From Candidatus Krumholzibacteriota bacterium (GTDB taxonomy: Bacteria > Krumholzibacteriota > Krumholzibacteriia > JAJRXK01): DNA of 64,000 nucleotides. Shown here piece by piece: positions 26,151 to 46,270 of this stretch. Position 1 is the first letter of the stretch; every line of letters begins with the position of its first letter. Below the pieces are notes generated by a model that was given only the letters and a program-made list of their open reading frames with translations, was not told the origin of the DNA and did no database searches. Location: contig CAVSGG010000015.1 of NCBI GenBank assembly GCA_963727455.1, forward strand, positions 32,001 to 96,000, written 5' to 3'. Both the position numbers and the translations under genes were made by a program.

Positions 26151-27125
26151 TCAGGCGATCCATGACCACAAGCTCTCGCGGGAGAGGCGGTCCGCGACAT
26201 CCACGCGTCGCACCGCCACGATGGATTGCATGAGCTCCTCAACCAGCCCGAACTCTTGCTCCTGGACTCTACCCCGCGCGTGCAGGATGGCGCCCTCGCC
26301 GGCATAGAACGCGACATGGTCTACCGGCTCGTGAAAGAAAATGAGATCTCCCGGCTCCCACGAATCCTGTCGCACCGAGACGGGCTTGCCACAGCGCGAC
26401 TGCTGCACCGCATCACGAGGCAGGTAGTATCCGCAGGAGTGCGCGACGAGCTGGAGATAACCACTGCAGTCCACGCCCAGTGCGCTTCGTCCCCCCCAGC
26501 GATAGGGCGCTCCTAAGTACCGGCGCGCCTCGGGCACCAGGCGCGATCTCTCGGGGCTAAGCGGTACTCTGCGAACCAGCTCGCGCGCGAGTGTCCCGCG
26601 GGTGCCGTCGGGCAGTTCCGCGGAGAACTCGGAGGAATCGGAGACGTGCTCCTCCACACGAAGCAGCGGGGTACCGCCGATGAGGGCGAGAGGATGTCCC
26701 TGCTCCGTTTTGAGCGTCGCGAATGGAGTTTCGATCAGTCCCGTTCGTTGCGACAGCAGTTCGTCCTTCTCTCCGGGAGCCAGGGTGCGGCAGGACCAGG
26801 ATCGAAGCCAGCTGACGTAGCCGTCCTCCGAAGCCACCAGGAGCCAGTCGCCGTGCGTCAGGATGTGTTGGAGAATTTCTCCCATCCGCACTTCGCTCAA
26901 GAGCTGTGCGTGGTGCGAAGGGGCCTCCCGCAGGGCTTCGAGCGGCGTTTGTACGAGGAATTCGTCCCCAGCAACGATGGCTGAGACCCCGGCCAACTCG
27001 GCTGCGGATTCGGGCCAAGCGCAGGGCTTGCCCCGCGCGTCGAATCCGAGGTAGGCATTGCGCCAATCGACTGCGAGGGCGGCCATTTTTTCGCGGAGCG
27101 AGTGAGCAAGTCTGGGATCGATCAC
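26151..27125 (-). CDS. SH3 + NlpC/P60 peptidase (YkfC-like)
   Basis: PYRWGG..GVDCSG, LPRDA.QQ, GDLIFF, DHV, ILHA; SH3b-like segment (GEILQ..W..V..DGYVSW). Confidence 0.85.
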   Translation of the reverse strand: MIDPRLAHSLREKMAALAVDWRNAYLGFDARGKPCAWPESAAELAGVSAIVAGDEFLVQTPLEALREAPSHHAQLLSEVRMGEILQHILTHGDWLLVASEDGYVSWLRSWSCRTLAPGEKDELLSQRTGLIETPFATLKTEQGHPLALIGGTPLLRVEEHVSDSSEFSAELPDGTRGTLARELVRRVPLSPERSRLVPEARRYLGAPYRWGGRSALGVDCSGYLQLVAHSCGYYLPRDAVQQSRCGKPVSVRQDSWEPGDLIFFHEPVDHVAFYAGEGAILHARGRVQEQEFGLVEELMQSIVAVRRVDVADRLSRESLWSWIA

Positions 27126-27138
27126 CGCTTTTGCCCCT

Positions 27139-28467
27139 TCAATCCTGTTCCCGCCAGACCAATGTCCAGTGACCCAATCCATCGTCGTCACGGAAGTAGT
27201 AGGTCTCGCCCCGATCGAGGTAGTGCCACAGTTCATATTCCGCGCTGCTGCTCTGCAACATCGTCTGGCTCTCGATGCTATCCGGAGGTCCCAATCTCAC
27301 GTAGACGCGCCCCCGATCGCTGGTGGCACCATCGGAACTTCCATCGCGGAAATTCTCCCGGGCGTGGCTGACGCGCTCGTAATGTTCCTTCAGGCGGGGA
27401 TTTCCTGGAGATTCTGGATCCGGATCGCGGCGCTGCCAAAACGCCTTCCAGGCCTCGCGCCGCTTTGGTGCGGGCGTTTGACGCAGGCTCTCCAGTTCCT
27501 CGTCGCTCGCGATTCCCTCGATGACGCGAAGGTTGGATTCCCACTGTTTGTCCGAACTCGTGTCCAGACCGTAGTTTTGGAATTCGAGCTTCCTCTCGTC
27601 CCCTCCGACCAGGAGCACTTTGAGCTGATTCTCTCCCTCGGCGCAGGCTCGCGGAGGGAGCCGCAGCAGAACCGAACGCTCCTTCACCTGGCTTGCGAAA
27701 CGGACCCTCCGCGACCAGCGGATTCTGCCGTTCCCGCGGTCTCCCCTGATCTGAAACCCGAGGCTCAAGGAATCCCGTTCGCTTGCGGGCCGGAAATCGT
27801 AGATTTGCACCAGCACATAGGGATCTCCCGAGGAGAGATCGAAGAGGGGGTAGTTAGAACGGGTGAAGGTCTTGGCAAGCTGACCCGACTGCAGAGGGAT
27901 CAAATTCGTATCGATGGCCGCTACGCTCGCGGGATCGCGAGGATGGTAGAGGGCGACATCTCCCAGGGCGATCCCCCCCGGCGGAACGTGGGGGCGGCCG
28001 AGGGTGAATTCCCGCTTCCCCCAGCGACGCGATCCCTCCAGGTCCATCCGCACGTTCACCAGGACTGTCTTGGCTGGAGTGGGCGCCAGAGGAAATTCCA
28101 ATTCTCGTTTGAGAACCGTCGAGGCCCGCGTCTGATCGTAGTCCTCTACGAAGACCTCCCCATCCCACTCCTGGGAACGCAGGGCCTTCTTCTCCTCATC
28201 GCGCTGCACCACTCTCAGGTGATACCCCGCGCGAAACCTCCCGTCGTCCTGTTTCAGGAAGATGAGGTTGCGGTAAGGTACCGAGATCGTCACCACTGCT
28301 TCAGGACGTCCGGTATCATCGAAGCCGGCCTTGACCTCGCTGTCATACCAACCGTGCGGTCCACCACCCCAATCGCCATCCTCGAATTTGCGTTGAGCAT
28401 GGGCAGAAGGAGAGCCCAGCAAGAGGATGGTCATCAGCGCCAAGAGAGCTGAGGAAGTGCGTCGCAC
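27139..28467 (-). CDS. exported GWxTD-domain protein
   Basis: Signal peptide ending AHA-Q; FWQRRDPDP..N..YERV..A..F..GATSDRGRVYVRLGPPD..YELWHY. Start approximate. Confidence 0.8.
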   Translation of the reverse strand: MRRTSSALLALMTILLLGSPSAHAQRKFEDGDWGGGPHGWYDSEVKAGFDDTGRPEAVVTISVPYRNLIFLKQDDGRFRAGYHLRVVQRDEEKKALRSQEWDGEVFVEDYDQTRASTVLKRELEFPLAPTPAKTVLVNVRMDLEGSRRWGKREFTLGRPHVPPGGIALGDVALYHPRDPASVAAIDTNLIPLQSGQLAKTFTRSNYPLFDLSSGDPYVLVQIYDFRPASERDSLSLGFQIRGDRGNGRIRWSRRVRFASQVKERSVLLRLPPRACAEGENQLKVLLVGGDERKLEFQNYGLDTSSDKQWESNLRVIEGIASDEELESLRQTPAPKRREAWKAFWQRRDPDPESPGNPRLKEHYERVSHARENFRDGSSDGATSDRGRVYVRLGPPDSIESQTMLQSSSAEYELWHYLDRGETYYFRDDDGLGHWTLVWREQD

Positions 28468-28471
28468 GAAT

Positions 28472-29164
28472 TCAGGGGGTATCCACGGCAAGATCTGATT
28501 CGATCGCTCCATCACGCAGACGAACGATACGTCTGGCGTGCGCAGCGATCTCCTCCTCGTGCGTGACGATGATGATGGTATGTCCCCGCGCGTGTAGGGC
28601 ATCCAAGATCTCCATGATCTCATCACTGGTTCTGGAGTCCAGGTTGCCAGTGGGTTCGTCGGCCAAGAGAATGGAAGGTTTGTTGACGAGAGCTCGAGCG
28701 ATGGCCACTCGTTGATTCTGTCCTCCCGACAATTCGTTGGGGCGATGATGAATTCGTTCCTGAAGACCCACTGCCTGGAGGGCTTCTCGCGCCCGACTCT
28801 CCCGCTCGGCTGCGCTGCGACCGGCATAGATCAACGGAAGCTCGACATTCTGCACCGCGGTCGATCTCGGAAGCAGATTGAAGGTCTGGAATACGAAACC
28901 GATCTCCCGGTTTCGAATGGCCGCCAATTCATCGTCATCCAGCCGATCGACCTGCGACCCTTTGAGACGGTACGATCCGCTGGTAGGGGTGTCAAGACAG
29001 CCCAGAATGTTCATGAGAGTCGATTTCCCCGAGCCGGACGCCCCCATGATCGCGAGATACTCGCCCTCCTGGATAAAGAGCGTAACTCCCCTCAGCGCGT
29101 GAACCCGGTGGACGCCGAGCTGGTAGATCTTGTGCACGTCCTCGACCTGAATCAGCAAATCCAC
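28472..29164 (-). CDS. ABC transporter ATP-binding protein, MacB/LolD family
   Basis: [38 protein letters not shown]. Confidence 0.95.
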
Positions 29165-29175
29165 GCTCCTGCCGC

Positions 29176-30672
29176 TCAGCGGCCGGTGGCTCGATCAATC
29201 TTCGCGCGCGCGATGTAGAAGTCGGCGACCGCATTCACCGCGTCCCCGCGTGCCTGGGCCAGGCTCTGCTGAGCATTGATCACATCCAGGCTGGTACCCG
29301 CTCCCACTTTGAAGCGCTCCGATGCAAGCCTGAGATCCTCTTCGGCCTGGTCGATCGTCTCGCTGGCCACCTGAAAACTTTCCTTGGCTTCGATGAGGTT
29401 GTTCAAGAACCCGCTCAACTCGCTCTCCATGGTCAATTCGGACTGGCGAAGATTGTATTCGGCGCGGCGCTTCGCGGCCAAAGCCTGACGAGAACGGTTC
29501 CTCGTCTGGAAACGATCGAAGAGATTCCAACTCAGGCGCGCACCCCAGCTATACTGCCGGTTCTTCTGCGCCCCGAAGCGATAGGGCGTCTCACTCTGGC
29601 TCAGGGATGCCTGGCCGAAAACGGCGAGCTGCGGAAAGTAACCCGAGTGCGCCTGGGTGATGGCGTACCCACTTGCCTGAAGATTCTCCTGAGCAGATTT
29701 CAGATCGAGCCGATCCTGACGCGCCTCCTGGAGCAGATCCGAGAACTTGGGCAGTTCGATCGAGGAGATTTCGGCGGGCAGATCATCGGCCAGCTCGAAG
29801 CGCTCTGCACCGGGAATGTTCATGAAATGTGTCAGGAGCACGAAGGATTGCCGCTCCGAGTTGCGCGCCCGGACCACATCGAGCTGAGTCTGCTTGTAGC
29901 GGACTTGCGCCTGCAGTACGTCGCTCTTGGTGGCGATGCCCACGTCGAAATAGGTCTTGCTGCGATCCAGCTCCTGCTTGGCCACGTCCTGCGTCTCTTT
30001 GGCAACCTCGACCTGCTTCTGCGCGCGAAGAACGTTGTAGAACGCCTCACTCACGTCCTGCACGAGAACCTTCTCCTGGTAGCCCAAGTCGGCTTCAGCA
30101 GCCCGCACCGTTGCTTTGCTTTCCTTGATCCTGGAGATCCGGCCAAAGCCATCGAAGACGGTCCAGTTGGTGCTGAGACTGGCCGACTTGAAAGTCTGCA
30201 GGATGGTCTGGTTGCTCGTCCCCGAAGCAGCCAGAGTGGGTTCGTAGGCCTGTGTTCCATTGATGTCCAGCGGCAGTAGGTTCCCGTTCTGATCCACGTA
30301 GACAATCGGTTGACCGGGGATGACGGTCGAATTGGTGTAGTCGGCCACATCGAAGTCCGTGCGCTCGGAGCGATTCCAGCTGGCGGAAGCGGAGAGATCC
30401 GGCAACCACTGGGCCTTGGCGGCGGTCCGATCGCTTTTCGCCGCGGCCAGATTCTCCTCGTACACTCCCAGTGCGGTGGATCCGACCTTGGCCACCTTCA
30501 GACACTCGTCGAGTGTGACCGGGCTTCCGTCGTAGAGCCCCTTGATGGATTCCTGCAGCTGCTGGAGCTTGACTTCGAGCTGGGCATGGCAAGGACTGGA
30601 AGCCGCCGCGAGGAAAAGCAAGCACAGCGGCACTGCGAAGGATACGGTCCGGGCAAAGGACAATCTCTTCAT
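29176..30672 (-). CDS. TolC family outer-membrane channel
   Basis: Signal peptide; two OEP repeats (WLPDL / YFPQL, YFDVG.ATKSDV / RFKVG.GTSLDV). Confidence 0.92.
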
Positions 30673-30872
30673 GAAACGACACTCCTTAGGGAGACACAGT
30701 GGAGATACTACCACCAGGATGAAGACTGGCCATCATGAAGTCCACTAGCAAGCCCTCGGTGAGGGGGCGAGCGGGAAACGGTTGCCGTGGATCTGAGGAC
30801 ATACGAATCGGCACCCCCCCAATCATACGGAAGAGTGCCGAGCAGGTTGCAGTCAAGATCTCGCGTCGACTA

Positions 30873-31544
30873 CTAATAGAGCTTGAATCGGTACGGGAGA
30901 GTCACCCACACTTCCACCGCGAAGTCTCTCTGCTTTCCCGGTTTGAAAATGCAGCGGAGAGCCGCCTTGAGGGCCTCGGCATCCAGAATCGGATGGACGC
31001 TCTTGACCACCTCGGCCTGCTTGGCCCGCCCGTCCGTGCCCACCAGCACGTTGACCATGACGGTCCCCTGCAACTCCATGTCGCGAGCCGTCTCGGGGTA
31101 CTTGGGCGGAACCCACTTCACAATCTCGGGCTTGGTATCGAAGGCCACGAAGGTGTTCCCGGTGCTGGCCGAACCCCCACCCGTCGGGAGCGCCGCCGTA
31201 TCCCAGTTGTCCGGCAGGGTCTCCGCCAAATCGACATCTTCGTTCACTTCCGCGTCCGGCGCAGCCTCGATGGGCACCTGCGGGCGGGGAATTTCCTTCG
31301 GGGGGGGCGGGATGTCGATGGCGTCGGGAATGTCGAGGATCTCGATCTTGTCTTCACGGAGATGATACGGAGTCGGTTTGTATACCGGTGAGAAGAGGAA
31401 GATCAGAAGCCAGATCAGAAGCGAGGCATAGGTGGAGCGGCGCAGATAAACGCCGTAACGCGACTTGAAGCGTTGGTTTTCGTTGAGAAATACCGCTTCA
31501 CCGAACTCGATGTGTGCGTGGTCTCTTACGTGTGCGTGCGCCAT
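30873..31544 (-). CDS. tonB: energy transducer TonB
   Basis: TM helix, Pro-rich linker, PKYPETA..QGTV.V..LV..G C-terminal domain. Confidence 0.9.
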   Translation of the reverse strand: MAHAHVRDHAHIEFGEAVFLNENQRFKSRYGVYLRRSTYASLLIWLLIFLFSPVYKPTPYHLREDKIEILDIPDAIDIPPPPKEIPRPQVPIEAAPDAEVNEDVDLAETLPDNWDTAALPTGGGSASTGNTFVAFDTKPEIVKWVPPKYPETARDMELQGTVMVNVLVGTDGRAKQAEVVKSVHPILDAEALKAALRCIFKPGKQRDFAVEVWVTLPYRFKLY

Positions 31545-31552
31545 GGCTGCCT

Positions 31553-31975
31553 CTAATACTTCGGACCGGGCCTGGATTCGAACTTGTCGTTGAAACTCAC
31601 GCGAACCGCATTGGCTTCTTTGAGCTTCTCCATCACATCATCCATGACCTTGTACTTGGCACGGGTGTCGGTCTGGAAGGCCACGATCATGAGCGGGTTC
31701 TCTTTGTATTTCTGCAGCATGATCGGATACACAGAATCGAGATTCACGATCTTGTCATCGATCGAGATCCTGCCCTTGCGATCGATCCAGATGTGGCTCA
31801 CCAGCTCTCGCTTTGGTTCCACTCCTGACTCGGCTCGCGGCAAATCGACCGGCAAACCGTCCTCGGTCTTGAAGACCGTGGTCACCATGAAAAAGAGTAG
31901 CAGCATGAACACGATGTCGCCCATCGAGGCGGTCGGGATGCTCGTGCTGGACTTGATGTTCTTTTCGAACTTCAC
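31553..31975 (-). CDS. exbD: ExbD/TolR family protein
   Basis: ASMGDIVFMLLLFFMV with the conserved Asp. Confidence 0.92.
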   Translation of the reverse strand: MKFEKNIKSSTSIPTASMGDIVFMLLLFFMVTTVFKTEDGLPVDLPRAESGVEPKRELVSHIWIDRKGRISIDDKIVNLDSVYPIMLQKYKENPLMIVAFQTDTRAKYKVMDDVMEKLKEANAVRVSFNDKFESRPGPKY

Positions 31976-31986
31976 GTCGGATTCCT

Positions 31987-32403
31987 CTAGGTCTTCAACA
32001 TCTTGATCGCCATGCGCCGAGCCTTGGCCAGACGGATTTCGTCCAGAACTGACACCATTGCGCCATAATCGGCGTCGGGGTGGGTGCTCAGAATGACGAC
32101 CAGCTTGCTATTGGCCTTGAGCCTGCGAATCAGCTCGTTCTTGATCTGGTTGACCCGGATCGGCACGCCATCGAGAGTGACCTGATTGAACGCATCGATC
32201 TTCAGATCCGCGACGTTCGACTGCTTGACCTTGACCTCTTCCGTCGAATCCGTCTTGGCCGGAAGAATGAGCGGAAGCCCGAGCTCCTGATTGAAGATCG
32301 TTGCGACCATGAAGAAGATGAGCAACAAGAAGACGATATCCGAGATCGACGCCATGTTGATCTCGGCGACACCCTGCTTCCTGCGCTTCAAGTTCACAGC
32401 CAT
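31987..32403 (-). CDS. exbD: ExbD/TolR family protein
   Basis: ASISDIVFLLLIFFMV with the conserved Asp. Confidence 0.92.
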   Translation of the reverse strand: MAVNLKRRKQGVAEINMASISDIVFLLLIFFMVATIFNQELGLPLILPAKTDSTEEVKVKQSNVADLKIDAFNQVTLDGVPIRVNQIKNELIRRLKANSKLVVILSTHPDADYGAMVSVLDEIRLAKARRMAIKMLKT

Positions 32404-32454
32404 GATCTACTACTCCGCTTCAACTCTCGTCGCTGACTCCGAGTTCCCCGGGTC

Positions 32455-33321
32455 TCAAGCCGGCGGGCCGATTTGCGTCAGCTCTTCCACTAGCTCGGCC
32501 GAGGTCTCCTCCATTTCAATGATAAAGCGATCGATCACTGAGAGAAAGAAGCTGTAGCCAATACTGGCCGGAATGGCGATTACAAGCCCAGCTGCGGTGG
32601 TGATGAGGGCCTCGGAGATACCGCTCGCCACCAGTTTCGCGTTCACCTGATCGGCGTTGGCGATGGCCTCGAAGGCGTTGATCATACCGGATACGGTCCC
32701 GAGGAAGCCCAGCAGAGGCGCGACGTTCGCCACCGTGGAAAGAGCCACGAGCCCGCGCTCCAGGAAGGACATCTCGATGGTACCCGAAGTTTCGATGGCC
32801 TTCTCCACGGCCTCGGGTCCGCGATCCGCGCGCAATAATCCACTGTGGAGAATCGCCGCGATCGGTCCTCGTGTCCGCTCACAAACCTGCGCCGCTTCGG
32901 TCACGCCGTCGCTGCGCAGAGTGGTAATTACGGTTCCGATGAGCCGTCGGGTGTTGGTTCGTGCGCGCGCCAAGGTGACGAAACGCTCGATCAATACCGC
33001 GATCATGACGACTGCGCAGAGGAAGAGAGGCAGCATGAAATTGCCACCCTTGATGAACAGCTGGCCGGCGCCGCTGCGGGCGAGCCAGGGCATGTCCCGC
33101 TCGAACCACCCCATGAAGCCGCCCACGGGAGCTTCGACGACCACGACTTCGTCACTGGAGTCCGAGAGCGACCACGCCAGCGAGTCCGCCGTGTTCATGA
33201 CTCCCTCGAAGTTGAGGGAATCGGGAGGGGTGGCATCCTGAGCCACGGCCGGATGCGCGAATGCCAGGGTCAGAGCCGCGACAAACAGGAGGGCGCATGT
33301 GAACAGACCATTGCGAGCCAT
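32455..33321 (-). CDS. exbB: MotA/TolQ/ExbB proton channel protein with an N-terminal exported extension
   Basis: APLLGFLGTVSGMI, GISEALITTAAGL; signal-like N-terminus ending AVA-Q. Confidence 0.92.
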   Translation of the reverse strand: MARNGLFTCALLFVAALTLAFAHPAVAQDATPPDSLNFEGVMNTADSLAWSLSDSSDEVVVVEAPVGGFMGWFERDMPWLARSGAGQLFIKGGNFMLPLFLCAVVMIAVLIERFVTLARARTNTRRLIGTVITTLRSDGVTEAAQVCERTRGPIAAILHSGLLRADRGPEAVEKAIETSGTIEMSFLERGLVALSTVANVAPLLGFLGTVSGMINAFEAIANADQVNAKLVASGISEALITTAAGLVIAIPASIGYSFFLSVIDRFIIEMEETSAELVEELTQIGPPA

Positions 33322-33429
33322 TGGCTGCCTTGTCCTTTCCTCGGGTGAAGAATTGCGCGGGTTATTTGGAGCCGCAGATGACGAAAAGAGCGTCGACCCC
33401 GACCCGGAAATATCCGAAAAACAGGCAGT

Positions 33430-33459
33430 AGTATAAGGAGCGCGTTTTCGCACTGTCAA
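33430..33459 (-). promoter_or_regulatory. internal promoter for exbB-exbD-exbD-tonB
   Basis: TTGACA-N18-TATACT. Confidence 0.65.
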
Positions 33460-33486
33460 GACCTGCTTCCGCATCAAAACAACCCC

Positions 33487-34992
33487 TTAGTCCTTGCGAA
33501 ATGGAGAATTGGAGGTTTCTAGGTGATAGACCCCCGTGCCGAGTTGGTCCACGAACAGGAACCTCAGATCCGTCCCCTCTGACCACTCTGGAGCCTCGCT
33601 CTCGAGGAGGGGATCGCCAACCTGGTTGTAGATCCACAGCTCGAACGCGGCGAGAGAATTCAATGATCCGGGAGTCAATCTAGATAGGTCCTGCTGGGTT
33701 TCAAAGCGCGTTCGGTCCAGAGGTACCACGGACTTGATCGTCCTTCCCTGACGATCGACTTGCGTGGGATCGTGCACCTTCGCCACCGCCTCCTGAACCT
33801 CTTCGGTATCGTTGGGCACGACGTCAAATTGCTTCTGGGCCGGAGGACCGTAGTGAATGTATACGCGCCCGCGGGCGGTCAGCGGCCCCGGCGTTCCCTG
33901 TTCCCCGAAGAAGCGTCTCGCGTAATCCACTCGTCTTTTGAAGCGGTCGTAGGTTTCGTTGGCCTTGGTCCCGGGCGTGGGATCGTGTGCCGCCCAGAAC
34001 TTGTCGAGCGCCGCCGCCCTTGCCGTGGGGGGCAAGCTCTTCACACGTTCCCTCTGCTCTCCGCGGAGCAGAAGCTCGATCTCCAGATCCACCAGGTGCG
34101 AATCTCCCAGTAGATGGTTCATGTTCCACGCCACCACGAACTCACCTTGGCGCGTCTCAGCTCCCGGCTCCATCGGAACGATGGTCAGGCGATAGCTTCC
34201 CTCGAGAAAGGTCGCCAGCGGAGCGGAATAGGTCGCGGCGCGTCGCTCTCCTTCGCCCACCACCTGGATGGTATCCCCCTGGCTGAAACCGCTCAGCGGA
34301 TCCTCGATCCGCACCGACAGGGGAACCGCTTCTTTGAGAGCGCGGTTGAGCTCGAAGTAGACCAGAAGCGTGTCCTGGTTGATCCCGTAGAGACGCCCTG
34401 GGTTGGGCAGCTGCGGTCCCTGAACGGTATTCCAGCGGAACTCGAGGTCACTCAGGAAACAACCGCCTGCTTGCGGCGACGGAACGACCAGGATCCCCGT
34501 GGCCCTGCCCTCCCTGTCCGTGAGCCCTTGACCACTCTGCAGATTGTCCAGCTCGAGAGTCACCGCCCATGGGCCGGCCCCGACGTGGCGGCTGAGCTCG
34601 AAGAGAGCAAAACGCTGAGGATCTTGTGTCTGCTGGAGATCCTCGGCGTCGACCACGAACATCTGCTCCGTATCGACCGAGACCTCCCCTTTCCGAGCCA
34701 ACTTGAGGTGGAGTTTGGCCTTGGCTTCATAGCCGCCACTGGGCTGCTCTTGGAATTGCAGCTGCGAGTGGTAAACGACGACTGCTAGATCCAGGCGCGC
34801 GCCTTCGGCATCGAAGAACACTGGCAAGTCCGCGCTGAAGCTCAAATCCCCGTCGGAGTGCAGAGACAAGGGAACCCCGGCGCTCGCGAGCGAGCTGAGC
34901 CCGAGGAGAAGGAGAACTGCGGAGAAGACCGCGAGAAGAAGATCTTGGCCCGGAATCAACCGAAGCGCCTCGCGTGTCCCTTTTCTTGCCAT
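33487..34992 (-). CDS. exported GWxTD-domain protein
   Basis: Signal peptide ending ASA-G; beta-rich N-terminal part; FWAAHDPTP..NE..RRVDYA..F..GPLTARGRVYIHYGPP..FELWIY..FLFVD. Confidence 0.8.
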   Translation of the reverse strand: MARKGTREALRLIPGQDLLLAVFSAVLLLLGLSSLASAGVPLSLHSDGDLSFSADLPVFFDAEGARLDLAVVVYHSQLQFQEQPSGGYEAKAKLHLKLARKGEVSVDTEQMFVVDAEDLQQTQDPQRFALFELSRHVGAGPWAVTLELDNLQSGQGLTDREGRATGILVVPSPQAGGCFLSDLEFRWNTVQGPQLPNPGRLYGINQDTLLVYFELNRALKEAVPLSVRIEDPLSGFSQGDTIQVVGEGERRAATYSAPLATFLEGSYRLTIVPMEPGAETRQGEFVVAWNMNHLLGDSHLVDLEIELLLRGEQRERVKSLPPTARAAALDKFWAAHDPTPGTKANETYDRFKRRVDYARRFFGEQGTPGPLTARGRVYIHYGPPAQKQFDVVPNDTEEVQEAVAKVHDPTQVDRQGRTIKSVVPLDRTRFETQQDLSRLTPGSLNSLAAFELWIYNQVGDPLLESEAPEWSEGTDLRFLFVDQLGTGVYHLETSNSPFRKD

Positions 34993-35034
34993 TGGTTCAC
35001 GGCCCCGTGGGAGTCTCGCCCGGCCCAGAACCTC

Positions 35035-35988
35035 CTAGTACCGGAAAGAGACCGTGACACGATGGACACCGCCCAAACTCGACATGTCCACATAGGAGTA
35101 ATCCAGGGCGGCAGCGCTGCGCTCTCCGGTGTGAATTCGAAATCCAGCGCCGGCGGAGAAAGTCTCTGCGTCGTAGTTCAGATTGTAGCCGCCGCGCAAA
35201 AAGAAAGTCTCGTCCATGCCATATTCCAGACCGAAATTGGCGCGTTCCGCGTTGTCCGCTGGATGTTGGAACTCGCCCGAGACAAGCACGCTCTGGCGCT
35301 TGGTTCGAATGGGCACGAAGCTGGCGCCCACCTTGAAGGTGGTCGGCATCCGGGCGGGACGATCGTCATAGTTCACCTCGCCGCCCAAACTCTGAATGAT
35401 CATCCCGATCTTCATGCCGCGAATCCCTACCCGGTAGAGGATCCCCACGTCCAGAAGGAAGGAGTTCACCGAAGTCTCCGCCAAACCGCTGTGCATGTAG
35501 TACCCGGTGAATCCGGCCGAGAACTTGTCGGTGAAGTAACGGCTGTAGGTGAGTCCCAAGGTGCTCATTCCATTGTCGAAGGTACGTCCAGTCCCCTCCG
35601 GCTTGAATGCGGTTCTCTCGGGCTCAGGGTCCATCCAGAGCGCCCGCGCACTGATGGCGAAAGTGCCTGGGATACTCCGGGGATTGAAGACGTATGCCGC
35701 ATAGCTGAGCTTGATGTCCGCCGGCCACATCGTCTGATTCAGAGTCAGCTCACTGCCCCGGATGGACACGATCCCCGCGGGGTTCCAGTAGACCGCGGTG
35801 GCATCATCGGCAATTGCGGTGAAGGCCGAACCGAGTGCGGTCGCCCGCGCGCTCACGCCGATCTTCAAGAACTGGGCCCCGAAGGTACCTACCTTCTCGA
35901 ACACCTCGGCCGCGCTGGCCACAGTGGGAATCGTGGCCATGAGGCTGAGTCCCAGGGCAGATAGAACGAGGACTTTCCGCAGCTTCAT
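35035..35988 (-). CDS. PorV/PorQ-like (FadL-fold) outer-membrane barrel
   Basis: FLKIGVSARATALGSAFTAIADDATAVYWNPAG signature; C-terminal beta-signal VSFRY. Confidence 0.85.
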   Translation of the reverse strand: MKLRKVLVLSALGLSLMATIPTVASAAEVFEKVGTFGAQFLKIGVSARATALGSAFTAIADDATAVYWNPAGIVSIRGSELTLNQTMWPADIKLSYAAYVFNPRSIPGTFAISARALWMDPEPERTAFKPEGTGRTFDNGMSTLGLTYSRYFTDKFSAGFTGYYMHSGLAETSVNSFLLDVGILYRVGIRGMKIGMIIQSLGGEVNYDDRPARMPTTFKVGASFVPIRTKRQSVLVSGEFQHPADNAERANFGLEYGMDETFFLRGGYNLNYDAETFSAGAGFRIHTGERSAAALDYSYVDMSSLGGVHRVTVSFRY

Positions 35989-36055
35989 CGATCAACCTCC
36001 GCTCCGAAAGAGCAGGTCAGGGACCTGAAAAACCCAGGCCCCCCGTTTTGAGCTT

Positions 36056-38839
36056 CTAGCGAATGACGGTGAACTTGCCCACCACCCGATTGAACTTGTT
36101 GTCATCGGATTCCACCGAGAATAGGTAGATTCCGCTCACGATTTCTTGACCGTTTCGCGATACCAGGTTCCAGGACACCGAACCATCGCCATCTCGACCA
36201 TCGTGCGGGATTTCCGCCACGAGATCACCCGACAGGGTGAAGATCTTCACCGTGTTCTTCGATCTCGGCAAATTGCGGAATTCTACGCGGACTCCGGTTG
36301 GGTCGTCGGAGTTGGGATAGAGTTGACTGAACTCCGAAAGCGATTGTCGCGTCGCCGGGTTCGGCACCACGTAGATGTTGGCTCCGTTCGCCTTGCGATC
36401 TTCCGGAGTCTGCGCCACCGACTTTGGAGACGCGAAGGCGAAGTTGCTCTGGGGATCTCCCACCAGGCCGGGACCAGTCGGTGTCAGCTCGGTTTTGGAC
36501 TGATCCACCGTGAAGTCCGAGGCGGTGACGGCATAAAAGTAGTAGATCCCGTTGTGCACGTCCGTATCGACGTATTCGTAGAACTGCACCTGCGGATCGA
36601 GCTTGGACCAGTAGAGAGTGTCGACCTGATCGTAGCAGCACTCCCAGTTCCCGAGCTGGGGATAGGCCATCCCGATATCGGTAATGGTGCCGTCGGCCTT
36701 CCGATACCGGAGCAAGGTGCTCGGATTCAGCTTTTGCCTGTTCTCGTTCAGGATCTGATCAATCAGCGCCGCGAGATCCTTGTACTTCGCCGCTTCGTAC
36801 GAGCCTGGCCGGTTGACCAGGGGAGTATAGCGGATGGGATCCAATCCGGTATTGGGGCCCAGAGGGAGTCTCTCCGTCACCTCGTCGAGGCCGCCGCTGA
36901 TCGAGCGGACAGTGGTGAAACTATCGACGAGATCGTATTCGGCAATGAGTCGCCAGAGCTTGGATTCCGGTCCGTTGTTCACCGAGGAGCCGTAGGGCCG
37001 GTCCCAGTTGTCCGCGCGCCAGATCCGGTAGGATTCGAAGTCCTTCTTCTGCAGGCGAACGTCGTTTTCCAACTCGCTCTTGTTATTGAAGAACACGTGT
37101 ACGCGATTGTTAGTCTGCCAAAGCCGCATCGTGGGGGCCGAGGGCGCGAGTCCCACGAGCCACGGGACCTTGTATTCCTTCCCCAGGACCCCGGTACAGC
37201 CGGCGAGGTAAGAGTTGTCGACGCCCTCCCCGTCCTGCAAGCAGGGGCTCTCACTGAGACCCCGGATATCTTGCCCCGTACGCGCGCGTTCGAAGTCACA
37301 GTCGGCGTCGATGTAGATACAGCCGTCATCGTCCAAGTCCTTGGGCTCGATGAAGACAGCCCTTCCTTGGGCGATGGCCAAACTGTCGGTACAGTCGACG
37401 AAGAGGCTGAAGATTGGATTCGACGCGCCGCGAGGACCGAAGTCGTCGATACAGATCTTCGATTCCCGTCCCTTGATTCCCGTATCGGGATTAGCATCGC
37501 GATCGAAATCGGCCCCATAGTAGGTCAGAGCGGCTTGGATTGCATTACGACGCATTCCCTCGAAACCCTCGCCCATCACGAAGGCAGCCTGGAACTCGAG
37601 ACTTTGGGTCGGCTCGAGGCCCGCAAACGGTCCGGTCGCTATGAGGATACGGTAGTCGTTGCCTCGACCCTGTCCCGGCTGAGGAAAACTGTCATATGCA
37701 TGCCGCGACATGAGCTCATAGCGTTCGGAGTCGTTCGTTGGGTCTCCGCCGCGATCGAAGGTCGCGCTTCCGCTGAAATTCTGGAACGAAGTGATTCCGA
37801 CGGCCTTCGGCGCAGTTTCACCGGTGGGATCGGTGTCGTGATTGAGCATGAACATGCCGAAGTAGCCCGTCGTGACTCCTGCATCACCATCTGCGTCGTA
37901 ACAATAGGCGATGGAGAGAGGGACATACGACCCGTCCTGGGCGCGAACCGTACCCGACCAATAGCCGGGCAAGTCGTCGTTGGCGATTTGCACGCCGCCG
38001 CGAGGGCCGCAGTCGGGATCGGCGAAGAAGCCCAGGTAGATGTCATCCAGAGGCGCGACACCCGTATTGGTGATGGTAAATTGGAAGCCGATGAAGTCGT
38101 CGACCGCCTCGTCCTCCCACTGGAAGGTCTCTTGCACTACGTCGATGTGCAGAGGCTCGTGATCAGGATAGGCCTCGATTGCCTGTGGCGAATAGTCGGT
38201 GTAAAGACAGCGGAAATCCTGATTTCCGATGGCCGCGTAATCCTCGTCGATCTTCCCGTCACCGTCGTCGTCTTTCCCGTTCTTGGGATCTTCGTTGACC
38301 AGACCATCCTTGTCGTCATCGAAATTGGGGTCGGGATAACGTGCGCCTCCAGGCTCTCCCTGCCGCGAGGTGTAAATCGTCGCCAGTGGATCCTGCGCAT
38401 CGGGGCGAAACTCGAGTTCGTACTGCCCGGTAGACACGGCGGGCACGCCGTTCTTGATGGCGCCGAACCACAGACCGGCTGACCAGAGATAGTCCACACC
38501 ACTACCCGCGGGCCACATCATCGACGGAGCGTCCGAGTAGCTCTGGCGCGTGCCCGGTTGTGAGCCTATGAGTCCGAAGTTTGTGATGTTGAGCTGGGCC
38601 TGTCCCACGTTCATCACGAAGTTCCCCAGGATCGTATAGCTTCCTTGGGCATCCTTCCCGAGAGTTGTGATCGCGGGTCCATCGTACCTGGCCACCGCCA
38701 CCTTGGCGCTGACCAGACCACTAGCAAACACCAGGAGACAGACAAACAGACGCCACCAGTCGAACTTTTCACGAGTGGCAAGGAACCACATGCCCACAAG
38801 CCTCCTTCGGCGACCCTCTCGTCGAGTTAGAATTGCCAT
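36056..38839 (-). CDS. large secreted protein with a T9SS type A-like C-terminal domain
   Basis: Signal peptide; C-terminus IYVVPNP..FRNLP..VKIFTLSGDLV..WNL..NGQEIVSGIYLF..GKFTVIR; DxDxDG motifs. Start uncertain. Confidence 0.75.
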   Translation of the reverse strand: MAILTRREGRRRRLVGMWFLATREKFDWWRLFVCLLVFASGLVSAKVAVARYDGPAITTLGKDAQGSYTILGNFVMNVGQAQLNITNFGLIGSQPGTRQSYSDAPSMMWPAGSGVDYLWSAGLWFGAIKNGVPAVSTGQYELEFRPDAQDPLATIYTSRQGEPGGARYPDPNFDDDKDGLVNEDPKNGKDDDGDGKIDEDYAAIGNQDFRCLYTDYSPQAIEAYPDHEPLHIDVVQETFQWEDEAVDDFIGFQFTITNTGVAPLDDIYLGFFADPDCGPRGGVQIANDDLPGYWSGTVRAQDGSYVPLSIAYCYDADGDAGVTTGYFGMFMLNHDTDPTGETAPKAVGITSFQNFSGSATFDRGGDPTNDSERYELMSRHAYDSFPQPGQGRGNDYRILIATGPFAGLEPTQSLEFQAAFVMGEGFEGMRRNAIQAALTYYGADFDRDANPDTGIKGRESKICIDDFGPRGASNPIFSLFVDCTDSLAIAQGRAVFIEPKDLDDDGCIYIDADCDFERARTGQDIRGLSESPCLQDGEGVDNSYLAGCTGVLGKEYKVPWLVGLAPSAPTMRLWQTNNRVHVFFNNKSELENDVRLQKKDFESYRIWRADNWDRPYGSSVNNGPESKLWRLIAEYDLVDSFTTVRSISGGLDEVTERLPLGPNTGLDPIRYTPLVNRPGSYEAAKYKDLAALIDQILNENRQKLNPSTLLRYRKADGTITDIGMAYPQLGNWECCYDQVDTLYWSKLDPQVQFYEYVDTDVHNGIYYFYAVTASDFTVDQSKTELTPTGPGLVGDPQSNFAFASPKSVAQTPEDRKANGANIYVVPNPATRQSLSEFSQLYPNSDDPTGVRVEFRNLPRSKNTVKIFTLSGDLVAEIPHDGRDGDGSVSWNLVSRNGQEIVSGIYLFSVESDDNKFNRVVGKFTVIR

Positions 38840-41829
38840 CCGATACCCACGCGGAAAAGACGGTGTTGCTGGAACACGCGCGGGTCGTTCACCGGGACGT
38901 AGTCGTTCCGGCCGCTGCCGTCCACGTCGTAGAGGAGCGCCCCGCCGTACTTGCCGGTATCGGTCAGATACTGCGTATACGCAACCTGTGCGTTCGGGGC
39001 GACTGGTGCGACAAACGGCGCCTCCGTCGTCACGACGTCCTGATTGATTAGATTGAGGCCCTGCAGAAAGAGCGTCACTTTTTGGCCATACATGTTCACG
39101 TGTCGCTCGGCCTGCAGACTCAAGTCATACTCGTCCGGATGGCGACGGCTGTTTTCCAGCAGCGGATCAACCTTCTTCTCGAAGCGGAAGATGGGGGTCC
39201 AGGGGAAACCCGTTCCGTAGTCGAAAGTCATGCTGGCGGCCCAGACGTCCGGCTCCTGAACGCGCAGACCCAAGTGCAGACTGTGTCGCCGGTCCCAATC
39301 GAGCGGCAGCTCCTGGTTCGGAATGAACTGCAGGCCCTCGGGATTCGAACCGAAGGTCTGATCGCTAGCAACCCCGTCCGCAAAGGCAAAGGTATAGGCC
39401 AGTTTCATGCTCCAGCGGTTGCTATAGCGTTTATCCAGAGTGAACTCGACGCCGCGCGCGTTTGCGAAGGCTTTGTTCACGAATCGGCGCAGGGTGTTGC
39501 CGGTGGTCTCGTCGGTATATGTAGTGGTGGCGACGAGGCCGTAGATGTCCTTCCAGTACACCACCATCTGGCCAGCCAGGTAGTCGTTGAATTGACGCCG
39601 GATTCCCGCCTGGTAGGCGATGGTCAGCATGGACTGGAGGTTGGGATTCCCCAGCGAGCCCTGGTTCCCAATGGGATCCTGGCTGGCGAAAAGCACGTCG
39701 CGCTCGGGAAACTGGATGAAGCGCCCATAGTGGAAGTGGAAGGCGTCGCGGTCGGTGATGGGAAACGCGAAGCCGATACGTGGGCTGAACGCGGTCTTGT
39801 ATTTCAAAACGTTGCGATCCACGCCTTCATTACTCAGCAGGATGTTCGCGGCGGAGCCCGGAGAGAACATGTCCCAGCGGAAACCGCCATTGACCACCAT
39901 GCCCTCGTGCTCCCAGCGGTCCTGCAGATAGTAGGACGCCTCGGGGTTGAAGCTGTGGAGAACATTCCTGTTGCTACCCTGCGAATACTCCCCGGTGAGT
40001 CGGTCCAGGCGCTCGATCGCCGGTCTAGTCAGACTCTTGTCCCTTAAATCGTTGTAGAGAATTTTGAACCCGCTCTTGATCTTGTGACCCTTGTAGCGAG
40101 TGCTCGTGATGTCGAACTTCGAGGTGTACTGGACCGTCTTCTGGTCACGGAACACGTAGTAGTCGCCCGAGGTCACCAGGAAGGGATTGTCCTGATCGGT
40201 GGCGAAATCGGCGTTGAGCGGATACGAGGGTTGGGTGTCGAAGAAGGTCCCGGGCGCGTCGATTCCTCCGTGATTGAACTCGTACGGCAAGAGATCTCCG
40301 GCCACGGAATTGAAGCGATTGAACTCCAGGCGCGCCAGACGGAGAGTGTAGAAATCGGTGTCGTTGAGTGCGTGCCGCCACACGATCTTCGCCTGCGTAC
40401 TCCAGCGCTTGGACTCCGGCCCGCGATTCGCCGAATTGAAGTCCACGTAGGAGGAGTCCTCCTGCACGGAGGAGAATCGGGACACGGGGTACTGGAAGCC
40501 TTCGAATTGCGGCTGCGCCGCCGCGAGGAAGGTGCTCCCCCTCGTGTCGCGCAGCTGCAGGACCGGCATGGGCTCGTAGAATGTGCCCTCACCACGATCG
40601 ACCGCCACTCGCACCGTGTGCGCCAGACGCTGCATGTTCTGCACCCACGGCCCGTAGTAGACTCGGCGGGTGCGGCCAGTGAAACGGTAGCTCCCGGAAA
40701 CCGATTCGATCTCGGGCATGGTGAGGATCTTCTGGGCGTAACCCTGCACGTCCCAGTTGGGTAGATAGGGATCGCTGCGGGTGAAGTTGGTCGTGATCTC
40801 GGCCGTGACCTTCCGGGCCCCCGCATCGTCGAACTTGTAGGCCAGCTTGAGCGAGCCACGTCCCTGGTTGGTCTGCCGGCGACGCCACTTCCAGAGAGTC
40901 ACCCCGAGCAACTTGACCTCGCTTTCCGGCCGATAGGCGCGGTTGTAGTTCTCGTTGTCCGAGAACGAAAGGTCGCCGTTGACGAAGTAGGTCAGGCGCG
41001 GAATGCCGGTGGGACCGCCGAAGGCAAATTCGAAACGGTCGAAATTGGTATAAGTGCGATCCTGGCGACCAAAATCGTCGGTCAGGTAGCGAAAGCGCGC
41101 CTCGAACTTATCTCCGCCCTCACGCGTGGTGACGTTCACCACTCCGGAGAGCGCATTTCCGTACTCGGGATCCTGTCCGCCGGTAACGGTCTCGACGTTG
41201 GCGACACCGAGGCTGCCCACTCCCATCGACCCTCCGCCAAGGGGGTCATCCACCGCCACGCCGTCGATCCGGAAGGAGAGCTCGCCGGAACGGCCGCCAC
41301 GCACGTAGAGCTCGCCGCCGCGGGCCACGATTCCCGCCTGCTGTGCCACCGCTTCCTCGACCGAGTCCACGGCGTAGTCGGTGAGATCCTCACTGTGTAC
41401 GGTCTGGGTGAACTCGGTCTCCTTCACCTCGACCATGACCGCCTGCCCCTCGACGACGAATTCGTCGAAGGTCTTCACCACGGTAACTTCCAACTTGAAA
41501 TCCAGATTCGTGGACTTGCCGGGCGAAACGGTCACCGGCTGGGTCACCTTCTTGTAGCCGAGGTAGAGAATGCTGATGGTGTAGTTTCCGGCTGGGAGAT
41601 CGCGCAAAAAGAAGCGCCCGCCTCCCAAGGACATGGTTCCCCACTGCGACTTGTCGCTGTCCCGCGTCACCACCACGTTGGCATAGTCCAGAAGTTCTCC
41701 GGTTTTTCCATTGCGAATGGTCCCCGAAATACCCCCCGTCTGCTGTTGTGCGAAAGCGGGAACGGCGCATACCAAGAGTACGAGTGCAAGGACGAGTGAC
41801 GACCCGCGACCGAGAGACCGATGTAACAT
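38827..41829 (-). CDS. TonB-dependent receptor with N-terminal carboxypeptidase-regulatory-like domain
   Basis: AAGGAG RBS, signal peptide ending AFA-Q, TonB-box-like EFVVEG, plug motifs VRGGR and EYGNALSGVVN, SPRIG, GNPNL, C-terminal WQF. Confidence 0.92.
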   Translation of the reverse strand: MLHRSLGRGSSLVLALVLLVCAVPAFAQQQTGGISGTIRNGKTGELLDYANVVVTRDSDKSQWGTMSLGGGRFFLRDLPAGNYTISILYLGYKKVTQPVTVSPGKSTNLDFKLEVTVVKTFDEFVVEGQAVMVEVKETEFTQTVHSEDLTDYAVDSVEEAVAQQAGIVARGGELYVRGGRSGELSFRIDGVAVDDPLGGGSMGVGSLGVANVETVTGGQDPEYGNALSGVVNVTTREGGDKFEARFRYLTDDFGRQDRTYTNFDRFEFAFGGPTGIPRLTYFVNGDLSFSDNENYNRAYRPESEVKLLGVTLWKWRRRQTNQGRGSLKLAYKFDDAGARKVTAEITTNFTRSDPYLPNWDVQGYAQKILTMPEIESVSGSYRFTGRTRRVYYGPWVQNMQRLAHTVRVAVDRGEGTFYEPMPVLQLRDTRGSTFLAAAQPQFEGFQYPVSRFSSVQEDSSYVDFNSANRGPESKRWSTQAKIVWRHALNDTDFYTLRLARLEFNRFNSVAGDLLPYEFNHGGIDAPGTFFDTQPSYPLNADFATDQDNPFLVTSGDYYVFRDQKTVQYTSKFDITSTRYKGHKIKSGFKILYNDLRDKSLTRPAIERLDRLTGEYSQGSNRNVLHSFNPEASYYLQDRWEHEGMVVNGGFRWDMFSPGSAANILLSNEGVDRNVLKYKTAFSPRIGFAFPITDRDAFHFHYGRFIQFPERDVLFASQDPIGNQGSLGNPNLQSMLTIAYQAGIRRQFNDYLAGQMVVYWKDIYGLVATTTYTDETTGNTLRRFVNKAFANARGVEFTLDKRYSNRWSMKLAYTFAFADGVASDQTFGSNPEGLQFIPNQELPLDWDRRHSLHLGLRVQEPDVWAASMTFDYGTGFPWTPIFRFEKKVDPLLENSRRHPDEYDLSLQAERHVNMYGQKVTLFLQGLNLINQDVVTTEAPFVAPVAPNAQVAYTQYLTDTGKYGGALLYDVDGSGRNDYVPVNDPRVFQQHRLFRVGIGWQF

Positions 41830-42148
41830 GACGGTACTCCTTGCTGTTCTCTCGCGAGAGAACAACTCCACAGTCCAGCGTGGGGATGCGCCACACACCC
41901 CAGCACACGACCCATTCAACTCAATAGCGCGTCGCGCGGACGCGCTGACACCCGGGCCGGTGCGGGTGCGAAACACATAGAGCGGGGTTGAACTTGACGA
42001 CACCCCTGATCCGCGACTCCACCTGAAGGATCCGGCTGAGTGGAGCTTCCACCCGTGAATCCCAAGCACGAGCCGGGCACGAAAGGCCCGGCAGGTCCAG
42101 GGGATCAGGAAAAGCCGCGACATCAGGCACCTCTGATGTGACGTGCGA

Positions 42149-42177
42149 AATATACGGGGCGGGTTGAATCGAGTCAA
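42149..42177 (-). promoter_or_regulatory. promoter of the TonB-dependent receptor operon, overlapped by an inverted repeat
   Basis: TTGACT-N17-TATATT; GGGTTGA-N6-TCAACCC at 42161-42180. Confidence 0.65.
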
Positions 42178-42213
42178 CCCCGCGGATGGCGAGCTAAGCT
42201 CTTACAGGACACT

Positions 42214-45246: not shown

Positions 45247-45247
45247 C

Positions 45248-46213: not shown

Positions 46214-46270
46214 GAACATGCCGCAGGGTTGGTGTGCAAGTTTCAAAGTGCAAGCAGTGCGGGCGGACGG

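Follow-up and report, generated by a model that had tools for sequence, protein, structure and literature searches.

The 64,000-nucleotide (nt) stretch of Candidatus Krumholzibacteriota DNA analysed here, called the window below, carries between positions 26151 and 41829 a run of twelve minus-strand genes, among them those for a TonB-dependent receptor (TBDR), a secreted protein with a type IX-style C-terminal domain (the CTD protein), a PorV-like outer-membrane barrel, two GWxTD proteins, a Ton motor, and the channel and ATPase of a TolC-type pump. On balance, and with modest confidence, we read this region not as one machine but as three envelope units that lie next to each other and have stayed together in one phylum. 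A first-pass annotation of the same DNA had proposed a single self-contained complex for surface display or uptake; we depart from it on the question of unity, given that the cluster splits into units outside the phylum, and that promoter-like sites or blocks conserved within the genus occupy its three large gaps. The window corresponds to positions 32001-96000 of contig C15 in a genome (G000) of 3.46 Mb, 18 contigs and 89% completeness (letters G, C, L and f mark our own handles for genomes, contigs, loci and families). No description of this gene arrangement was found in the available text of the literature searched, supplementary files excluded.

If the genes do form three units, the first one (TBDR, CTD protein, PorV-like barrel and GWxTD-1) would be a nutrient-uptake module working like SusC/SusD, an interpretation suggested by the galactose-mutarotase-like supersandwich that the CTD protein is predicted to carry. 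This protein would be exported by Sec, would then cross the outer membrane via the ordinary type IX translocon of the genome by means of its C-terminal beta-sandwich tail, and would be kept on the surface by that tail bound to the cognate PorV/PorQ-family barrel, as PorU is on PorV and PorZ on PorQ; its mutarotase-like domain may capture a polymer, probably a glycan, and hand it over to the TBDR. The second unit (ExbB, two ExbD copies and TonB) would bring proton-motive energy to the TBDR through its TonB box, while the third (TolC, ATPase and GWxTD-2) would supply the channel and ATPase of a MacAB-TolC-type exporter, with the adaptor and two permeases moved to another contig. The GWxTD proteins would be exported by Sec and may act as accessory or scaffold proteins of trans-envelope systems. 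All twelve co-directional genes that the first-pass annotation had listed were found in place with their stated identities, by family matches and after the correction of four start codons:

38827..41829, minus strand: TBDR, an Oar/SusC-type TonB-dependent transporter with signal peptide, CarboxypepD_reg extension, TonB-box-like FDEFVVEG, plug and barrel
36056..38791, minus strand: CTD protein, exported, 911 aa, with a predicted supersandwich (~47-546), middle domains and a tail (~836-909)
35035..35988, minus strand: PorV/PorQ-family outer-membrane barrel, 317 aa (NF033709)
33487..34992, minus strand: GWxTD-1 (TIGR04514, 67.8 bits), with signal peptide, beta-rich N-terminal part and GWxTD-type C-terminal domain
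32455..33321, minus strand: ExbB/TolQ-family stator (MotA_ExbB, PF01618, 112.9 bits), with signal peptide and periplasmic N-terminal extension
31987..32403, minus strand: ExbD, first copy (PF02472, 84.7 bits)
31553..31975, minus strand: ExbD, second copy (PF02472, 81.9 bits)
30873..31544, minus strand: TonB (TonB_C, PF03544, 69 bits)
29176..30672, minus strand: TolC-family outer-membrane channel (PF02321, 220.6 bits, two repeats)
28472..29164, minus strand: MacB/LolD/DevA-like ATP-binding cassette (ABC) ATPase, with no adjoining permease
27139..28512, minus strand: GWxTD-2 (TIGR04514, 88.0 bits), with signal peptide, two beta-sandwiches and a C-terminal helical and four-strand GWxTD domain
26151..~27125, minus strand: NlpC/P60 and SH3 (SH3_16) peptidase, a family match whose start was inferred from a 324-aa orthologue in L006

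The corrected starts are those of the TBDR (41829, its context kept in 5 genomes), the CTD protein (38791, with AAGGAGG 9 nt upstream), ExbB (33321) and TolC (30672, with a ribosome-binding site). From the TBDR to the NlpC/P60 gene the intergenic distances are 35, 67, 42, 165, 51, 11, 8, 200, 11, -41 (an overlap, between the ATPase and GWxTD-2 genes) and about 13 nt, a tight packing save for three gaps of 384 nt before the TBDR gene, 165 nt before exbB and 200 nt before tolC. A shared strand says little by itself, because the same-strand run goes on upstream to about 59.6 kb through further genes (oppBCDF, lplA, gcvP, gcvT, uvrA, a tetratricopeptide-repeat (TPR) gene and a class II, D/K/N-type, aminoacyl-tRNA synthetase gene). 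It is conservation, not strand, that lifts the cluster above chance.

Within the class, a search for GWxTD proteins with TIGR04514 covered 41 genomes from eight families and matched all 41. At the locus itself, 29 of the 40 relatives were compared, namely those with two GWxTD matches lying 5-10.5 kb apart on one contig, and the presence of GWxTD-1 and GWxTD-2 in 29/29 is a consequence of that selection; five of the 11 relatives outside the comparison (G006, G008, G010, G015, G018, G021, G025, G028, G035, G036 and G040), all from family f2, have a single GWxTD match. The order TBDR, CTD protein, PorV-like barrel, GWxTD-1, ExbB, ExbD, ExbD, TonB, TolC, ATPase, GWxTD-2 recurs across the eight families, so the conservation of gene order on which the first-pass annotation had staked its proposal is indeed there. 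The TBDR, the PorV-like barrel, ExbB, both ExbD and TolC are kept in all 29 relatives (two ExbD in 28/29 by one filter, 29/29 with a second comparison), and the CTD gene, tonB and the ATPase gene are found at the locus in 25/29, 23/29 and 24/29. In G005, G011, G016, G026 and G031 tonB is absent from the cluster, which leaves no room for it, and G023 is unclear. At the tonB-less loci (L007, L010, L011, L027 and L028, from four genomes of family f3 plus G005) tolC comes 29-209 nt downstream of exbD.

A sample that does not depend on the GWxTD proteins was obtained by searching an alignment of the PorV-like barrel against 185,579 species genomes; the best 80 of the 568 confirmed relatives were taken, and their neighbourhoods were scored with profiles built from the class, the denominators being the loci with sufficient flanking DNA. 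In Krumholzibacteriota-named loci, the TBDR gene lies upstream in 13/13, the CTD gene just upstream in 11/13, a GWxTD gene within 4 kb downstream in 14/14 and ExbB within 6.5 kb in 11/11. Loci named as Eisenbacteria give 12/12, 12/12, 14/17 and 0/11 for the same four features, and those of KSB1, Calditrichota, Ignavibacteria, Kryptonia and ‘Bacteroidetes’ give 11/11, 5/11, 0/11 and 0/9, with a homologue of the CTD gene often further upstream in the latter. Miscellaneous named loci (6/6, 5/6, 3/4 and 3/4) and loci without a taxon name (21/21, 14/21, 20/23 and 13/17) complete the sample. The distant phyla follow the barrel gene with NHL-type proteins, or with genes of CTD-tailed aminopeptidases or nucleases. 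Conservation therefore falls into layers: the trio of TBDR, CTD protein and PorV-like barrel spans phyla of the Fibrobacteres-Chlorobi-Bacteroidetes (FCB) group, the quartet with GWxTD-1 occurs in two phyla, and only Krumholzibacteriota have motor and pump attached to it, bar the lineage of L104, which has them 5 kb away.

This layering bears on the proposal of one integrated trans-envelope machine, where the GWxTD proteins would couple the TBDR, the CTD protein, the PorV-like barrel, the Ton motor and the TolC pump in the periplasm, an arrangement that we consider unlikely. The whole order across eight families speaks for it, as do the 11/11 Krumholzibacteriota-named loci reaching far enough, the GWxTD gene that closes both the first and the third unit, the 41-nt overlap between the GWxTD-2 and ATPase genes, and Ton-type motors that are about as numerous as receptors in the genome (6 proteins with a Plug domain, 6 with TonB_C and 5 ExbB-like genes). 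Eisenbacteria, however, keep the first four genes only, with the farther motor being Tol-Pal-like: in one of their loci GWxTD-1 is followed by the genes gap, pgk, tpi and secG, and the ExbB-like gene stands 7 kb off in a TolQ-TolR-TolA-like-PD40 set. Among the 29 relatives, moreover, the cluster does without tonB in 5/29, without the ATPase gene in 5/29 and without the CTD gene in 4/29, no GWxTD-2 was detected downstream of the ATPase gene in four loci of the barrel-based sample (L046, L049, L050 and L052), and the pump adaptor and permeases of the window's own genome are on another contig.

The putative boundaries between units also tell against a single machine, since the units are set apart by conserved promoter-like sites. 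Of all the sigma-70-like sites in the region, the best two lie precisely in the gaps before the TBDR gene and before exbB, and a third conserved element lies before tolC:

42149..42177, minus strand: promoter-like site TTGACT-17-TATATT, 10/12 consensus matches, in the 384-nt oppF/TBDR gap
33430..33459, minus strand: promoter-like site TTGACA-18-TATACT, 11/12 consensus matches, in the 165-nt GWxTD-1/exbB gap
30826..30851, minus strand: conserved non-coding block TGCAAC ... CTTCCGTA, in the 200-nt tonB/tolC gap, a possible regulatory site

Both promoter-like sites are invariant in 5/5 genomes of the genus, with diverging flanks, and the block in the tonB/tolC gap, which has no sigma-70 match, has positions invariant in the same five. 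Judged by these signals, ExbB-ExbD-ExbD-TonB would be a unit with its own promoter. The TBDR gene would have a leader of about 300 nt (41830-42148) between promoter-like site and start, where a conserved hairpin-like GTTCTC...GAGAAC stands just 5′ of the ribosome-binding site; no Rfam family matched this leader.

The receptor of the first unit combines a CarboxypepD_reg N-terminal extension (PF13620, 63.7 bits), a plug and a 22-strand barrel domain (PF00593, 54.9 bits), which is the Oar/SusC-type architecture. Its Plug match scored 23.0 bits against a cut-off of 23.9 in the scan of the window, and 29.2 bits, above the cut-off, in a genome-wide search for Plug. The FDEFVVEG between extension and plug, kept as IVVxGE in an alignment of 25 orthologues, is what we take to be the TonB box from the pattern of the motif. 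No SusC/RagA-specific NCBIfam model matched the TBDR at E <= 0.01. Three of the six Plug proteins of the genome are of this TBDR type, and each one adjoins a PorV-family barrel or lies within about 3 kb of it. The module on C12 (G000:C12:130167-140816, L124) adds to the TBDR and PorV-like barrel a CBM9-like CTD protein, a 1100-aa uncharacterised protein and a glucoamylase-like enzyme with Por_Secre_tail, and that on C3 (G000:C3:107275-113901, L125) an NHL-repeat protein, as in Ignavibacteria. Such gene company is that expected of polymer-uptake loci.

The partner of the receptor, the CTD protein, has no Pfam family besides its weak tail and no SusD match in Pfam, and a sequence search of the PDB gave no meaningful relative of solved structure; its neighbours in the Atlas are unnamed protein families of Krumholzibacteriota and Eisenbacteria. 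The family signal of the tail stays under the cut-offs (FlgD_ig, 18.5 bits vs 27; TIGR04183/Por_Secre_tail, 19.1 vs 23). An AlphaFold2 model built with 33 orthologues (pLDDT 77, pTM 0.71) is beta-rich, and predicts in residues ~47-546 a galactose-mutarotase-like beta-supersandwich matching the N-domains of glucoamylase, glucodextranase, GH94, GH65 and GH116 (VIA Z 19.3-17.8, with 237-279 residues aligned at a root-mean-square deviation of 3.2-3.9; Foldseek 2.4e-7), and at 836-909 a beta-sandwich tail of the type IX CTD kind, with no catalytic barrel. A full-length CTD gene (882-1001 bits) is encoded elsewhere in 5/5 genomes searched, which were the four relatives without it at the locus and a fifth of the same families, and the last 90 profile positions match many other protein tails in those five genomes. 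Two copies of the gene flank the PorV-like gene on both sides in L022 (G030), L061, L063 and L069.

The third protein of this unit, the PorV-like barrel, is 49-99% identical across 24 aligned class-level relatives, and matches the PorV/PorQ subfamily model NF033709 with 184.8 bits (cut-off 90), staying below the equivalog cut-offs of the PorV and PorQ models (NF033710, 65.5 vs 250; NF033711, 83 vs 220). The window barrel is an extra paralogue, the canonical PorV of the genome being the one that directly follows PorU on C5. Four of the ten best PorV-family genes of the genome (on C15, C5, C9 and C7) directly follow a gene with a CTD-type tail. On C9 (G000:C9:426130-436439, L129), a 1109-aa protein with Big_1 and a FlgD_ig tail, a weak PorV-like barrel, a TPR protein, ExbB, ExbD and TonB stand in a row, with a PD40 protein nearby; the ExbB-ExbD-TonB genes are possibly a Tol-Pal set beside another tail-barrel pair. 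According to a review, the CTD of PorU stays on PorV and that of PorZ on PorQ; the review also proposes that cognate PorV-like barrels shield the CTD (PMC10202324). A structural precedent is BamG, a FadL-like barrel of 14 strands, which is bound to BamA and keeps a surface protein in place (PMC12578637).

The same precedent can be turned around, as BamG is a FadL-like barrel bound to another barrel, and the PorV-like barrel could be a channel of the FadL type that admits a hydrophobic substrate, or could pair structurally with the TBDR, rather than being a tether; its adjacency to the CTD gene would then mean no more than a shared substrate. We regard this as rather improbable. Weak matches to Toluene_X/FadL and UPF0164 fit such a role, and the pair of TBDR and PorV-like barrel does persist without an adjacent CTD gene in 4/29 relatives and in the C3 paralogue. 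The best family match by far is nevertheless PorV/PorQ, PorV-family genes repeatedly follow CTD-tailed genes in the genome, and the relatives that lack the CTD gene at the locus, as noted above, retain it elsewhere.

How the CTD protein reaches the surface depends on what else the genome encodes. In the window there is no SprA, PorK/L/M/N or SusD, as the first-pass annotation had already noticed and as holds among the 48 open reading frames (ORFs) scanned with Pfam, the larger ones of the window. Elsewhere the genome has SprA on C8 (a 2232-aa open frame, 555 bits summed) and PorU on C5 (449 bits vs a cut-off of 420), directly followed by the second-best PorV-family gene, and some forty-five further proteins end in a tail matching the C-terminal part of the PorU model; the complex can hardly be called self-contained, with SprA, PorU, the canonical PorV and dozens of CTD-tailed proteins encoded outside the window. 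SprA occurs in 41/41 genomes of the class. In the genome-wide search for type IX genes that had been recommended, SprA, PorU and PorV were found, and the models of GldL, GldM and GldK found no convincing match. GldL and GldM had no match in this 89% complete genome, where divergent forms are possible, and GldM_1st was found in 0/41 genomes of the class; as a positive control, the same model matched 6/31 genomes from another phylum. A candidate for GldK, an FGE-sulfatase-domain protein with a CTD, was rejected as not being GldK. No paper on Krumholzibacteriota and type IX secretion was found in the literature searched. The simplest route for the CTD protein would be the ordinary type IX translocon, since SprA, PorU, the canonical PorV and the dozens of CTD tails are all encoded elsewhere in the genome.

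There is a second conceivable export route, which would not need SprA: the TBDR itself would export the CTD protein, powered by the adjacent Ton motor, and the PorV-like barrel would receive it at the surface. In Myxococcus xanthus, Oar is needed for PopC secretion and uses its own Ton set (PMC6434023). The TBDR of the window has the architecture of Oar (CarboxypepD_reg, plug and barrel), the CTD gene begins 35 nt after the TBDR gene, and the GldM counts given above (0/41 in the class vs 6/31 in another phylum) point the same way. Yet a cargo of the Oar/PopC type would be expected to have no other outer-membrane export signal, whereas the CTD protein ends in a type IX-style tail, and dozens of proteins without a receptor of their own share the same kind of tail. 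The presence of SprA throughout the class and of PorU in this genome, the CTD gene lying far from the TBDR gene in 4/29 relatives (and in 5/5 genomes searched), and the paralogous modules, whose glycoside-hydrolase and binding-module genes are of the kind usual in uptake loci, all argue against this route, and we hold it to be quite unlikely.

As for the second unit, proteins with MotA_ExbB, ExbD and TonB_C domains are encoded together, and thus make up an ExbB-ExbD-TonB motor that is plausibly dedicated to the neighbouring TBDR. In this respect the first-pass annotation was on good ground, as a Ton motor adjoining a receptor with a TonB box is a reasonable energiser.

In the third unit of families f4, f5, f7 and f8, the ATPase and GWxTD-2 genes are separated by 4 kb of DNA that encodes an HlyD-type adaptor and two MacB_PCD/FtsX permeases, which are in situ in 9/29 relatives, with all five pump genes adjacent. 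In the window's genome, orthologues of the adaptor and the two permeases (322, 424 and 375 bits) lie together at G000:C3:57519-61255 (L127); no MacB/LolD-type ATPase was found on C3 among the 15 best matches listed, and none adjoins the adaptor and permease genes. Because these orthologues sit on C3, as in a split operon, TolC and the ATPase of the window look like the remaining half of a MacAB-TolC-type tripartite exporter, with channel and ATPase in the window and adaptor and permeases on C3. The two proteins had earlier been counted as parts of the one machine; they are better seen as a detached portion of a pump that is complete in 9/29 relatives.

Both GWxTD proteins match TIGR04514 far above its cut-off of 28 bits, the literal GWxTD motif being replaced by GPLTARG in GWxTD-1 and by GATSDRG in GWxTD-2, and both carry a signal peptide, with no lipobox, CTD or further membrane span seen. 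In an AlphaFold2 model of GWxTD-2 (pLDDT 80), two beta-sandwich domains are followed by a C-terminal domain made up of five helices and four strands; when the entire model was used for fold searches, the only matches were generic ones to beta-sandwiches (residues 51-315), and a PDB sequence search with the GWxTD-2 profile gave nothing meaningful. Relatives of near length are named only ‘GWxTD domain-containing protein’, 2/38 of them carrying an additional PF07495, long fused forms were not found in the protein collection (weak evidence), and no paper on the GWxTD domain was found in the literature searched. A complex prediction for GWxTD-1 (40-501) with the N-terminal extension of the TBDR (28-140) scored 0.00, which gives no verdict and says nothing either way.

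A new lead is another neighbourhood of GWxTD genes. In 8/8 loci from families f4, f5, f7 and f8 (L131-L138, in G017, G013, G023, G038, G012, G022, G018 and G037), one to three further GWxTD paralogues in tandem follow lptF-lptG, divergent from sprA, with an M28 peptidase gene after sprA; in the window's genome (G000:C8:6013-16747) M28-sprA and lptF-lptG are arranged likewise, with no GWxTD gene beside them. GWxTD genes in the class thus accompany three kinds of trans-envelope systems, which are the TBDR module, the MacAB-TolC pump and lptFG beside sprA. From this we infer that the GWxTD proteins are accessory or scaffold proteins of trans-envelope systems, a role which the neighbourhoods fit but do not define. 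A far bolder idea, and one we would call a long shot, is that motors of the ExbB-ExbD-TonB type and GWxTD proteins take over periplasmic type IX roles in Krumholzibacteriota; the same may hold for further FCB phyla where SprA, PorU and PorV occur and a PorL/PorM motor goes undetected. On this view the GWxTD proteins would form a novel class of periplasmic adaptors, linking Ton, MacB-type and LptFG engines to TBDR, PorV-like, TolC and SprA proteins, and the cluster would energise display and uptake together.

Several points weigh against the division into three units and the uptake role of the first one. The three units are never apart in those Krumholzibacteriota loci that reach far enough, and this unbroken linkage could mean a real functional coupling; low rearrangement is another possible cause, because the flanking opp (15/29 relatives) and aspartokinase (8/29) genes are partly syntenic too. 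The promoter scan as a whole was not above chance (6 sites found vs 3.6 +/- 1.7 expected). The tail of the CTD protein is below the curated cut-offs, with FlgD_ig detected at E <= 0.01 in 6/33 orthologues, the supersandwich fold is found in non-sugar proteins too, such as the periplasmic domain of YidC, and the PorV-like barrel weakly matches FadL-type families (Toluene_X/FadL and UPF0164). With GldL, GldM and GldK not found, the type IX apparatus of the phylum is not a textbook one. Gene identities, conservation, unit boundaries, predicted folds and the SprA, PorU and PorV genes elsewhere in the genome are direct results, whereas the export route, the tethering and surface exposure, the substrate class, the pairing of motor and receptor and any GWxTD role are inferred.

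The genes oppB, oppC, oppD and oppF (42214-46246) lie directly upstream of the TBDR gene, with no oppA-like binding-protein gene adjoining, and the next gene further upstream is that of a lipoate-protein ligase. On the other side, the NlpC/P60 protein, which had been taken for a component, is probably a neighbour and not part of the system: no signal peptide was seen by eye, it resembles cytoplasmic murein-peptide peptidases, and its gene is syntenic in 11/29 relatives. The first ATG of this gene (26151-27236) would overlap GWxTD-2 by 97 nt, and a GTG at 27125 fits the length of the orthologue better. A single peptide-uptake route made of oppBCDF, the TBDR and NlpC/P60 was considered and dropped, as the fold of the partner points to sugars and the synteny of opp and P60 is partial. 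The remaining genes of the window are housekeeping ones (rsmB, tgt, queA, ruvA, fusA, pgk, rodA, a PBP2-like penicillin-binding protein gene, mreC, mreB and radC).

If the first unit works as proposed, several uncultured FCB phyla would carry out surface capture for TonB-dependent import in a new way, with a type IX-exported, barrel-held partner where Bacteroidia use a SusD lipoprotein. This would widen the definition of polysaccharide- or polymer-utilisation loci in metagenomes, and PorV-family paralogues would gain a function beyond secretion itself. The locus also bears on how the type IX translocon is powered where PorL/PorM was not found, and it is a compact place to study the GWxTD family, with its three recurrent neighbourhoods.

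Among known systems, SusC/SusD and RagA/RagB of Bacteroidia offer the closest logic to the first of the three units. In both cases a large partner protein that is exported is encoded directly after a TonB-dependent barrel with a CarboxypepD_reg extension, the paralogous loci of the present genome carry glycan-active enzymes, and the sequence of events is likely to be the same, from surface capture to TonB-powered import. The partner, however, here combines a beta-supersandwich with a type IX-style tail and is not a SusD-like TPR lipoprotein, and a third gene, for the PorV-like barrel, is always present. With PorU-PorV and PorZ-PorQ the unit shares a CTD-keeping protein encoded beside the PorV-family barrel that is thought to hold it (PMC10202324), but the barrel of the window scores below the PorV and PorQ equivalogs, the CTD protein resembles neither PorU nor PorZ outside its tail, and the pair is wired to a TBDR. 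The Oar system (PMC6434023) has the same domain architecture and its own Ton motor close by; unlike Oar, the TBDR of the window has a neighbour with a type IX-type tail in a genome with SprA and PorU. The third unit, in turn, resembles MacAB-TolC and DevABC-HgdD in its TolC, its MacB/LolD/DevA-like ATPase, and the HlyD-type adaptor and MacB_PCD/FtsX permeases that complete it in 9/29 relatives. It differs from them in that the ATPase stands apart from the permeases, of which there are two distinct ones, that adaptor and permeases are here on another contig, and that the operon is always closed by the GWxTD gene where this gene is present.

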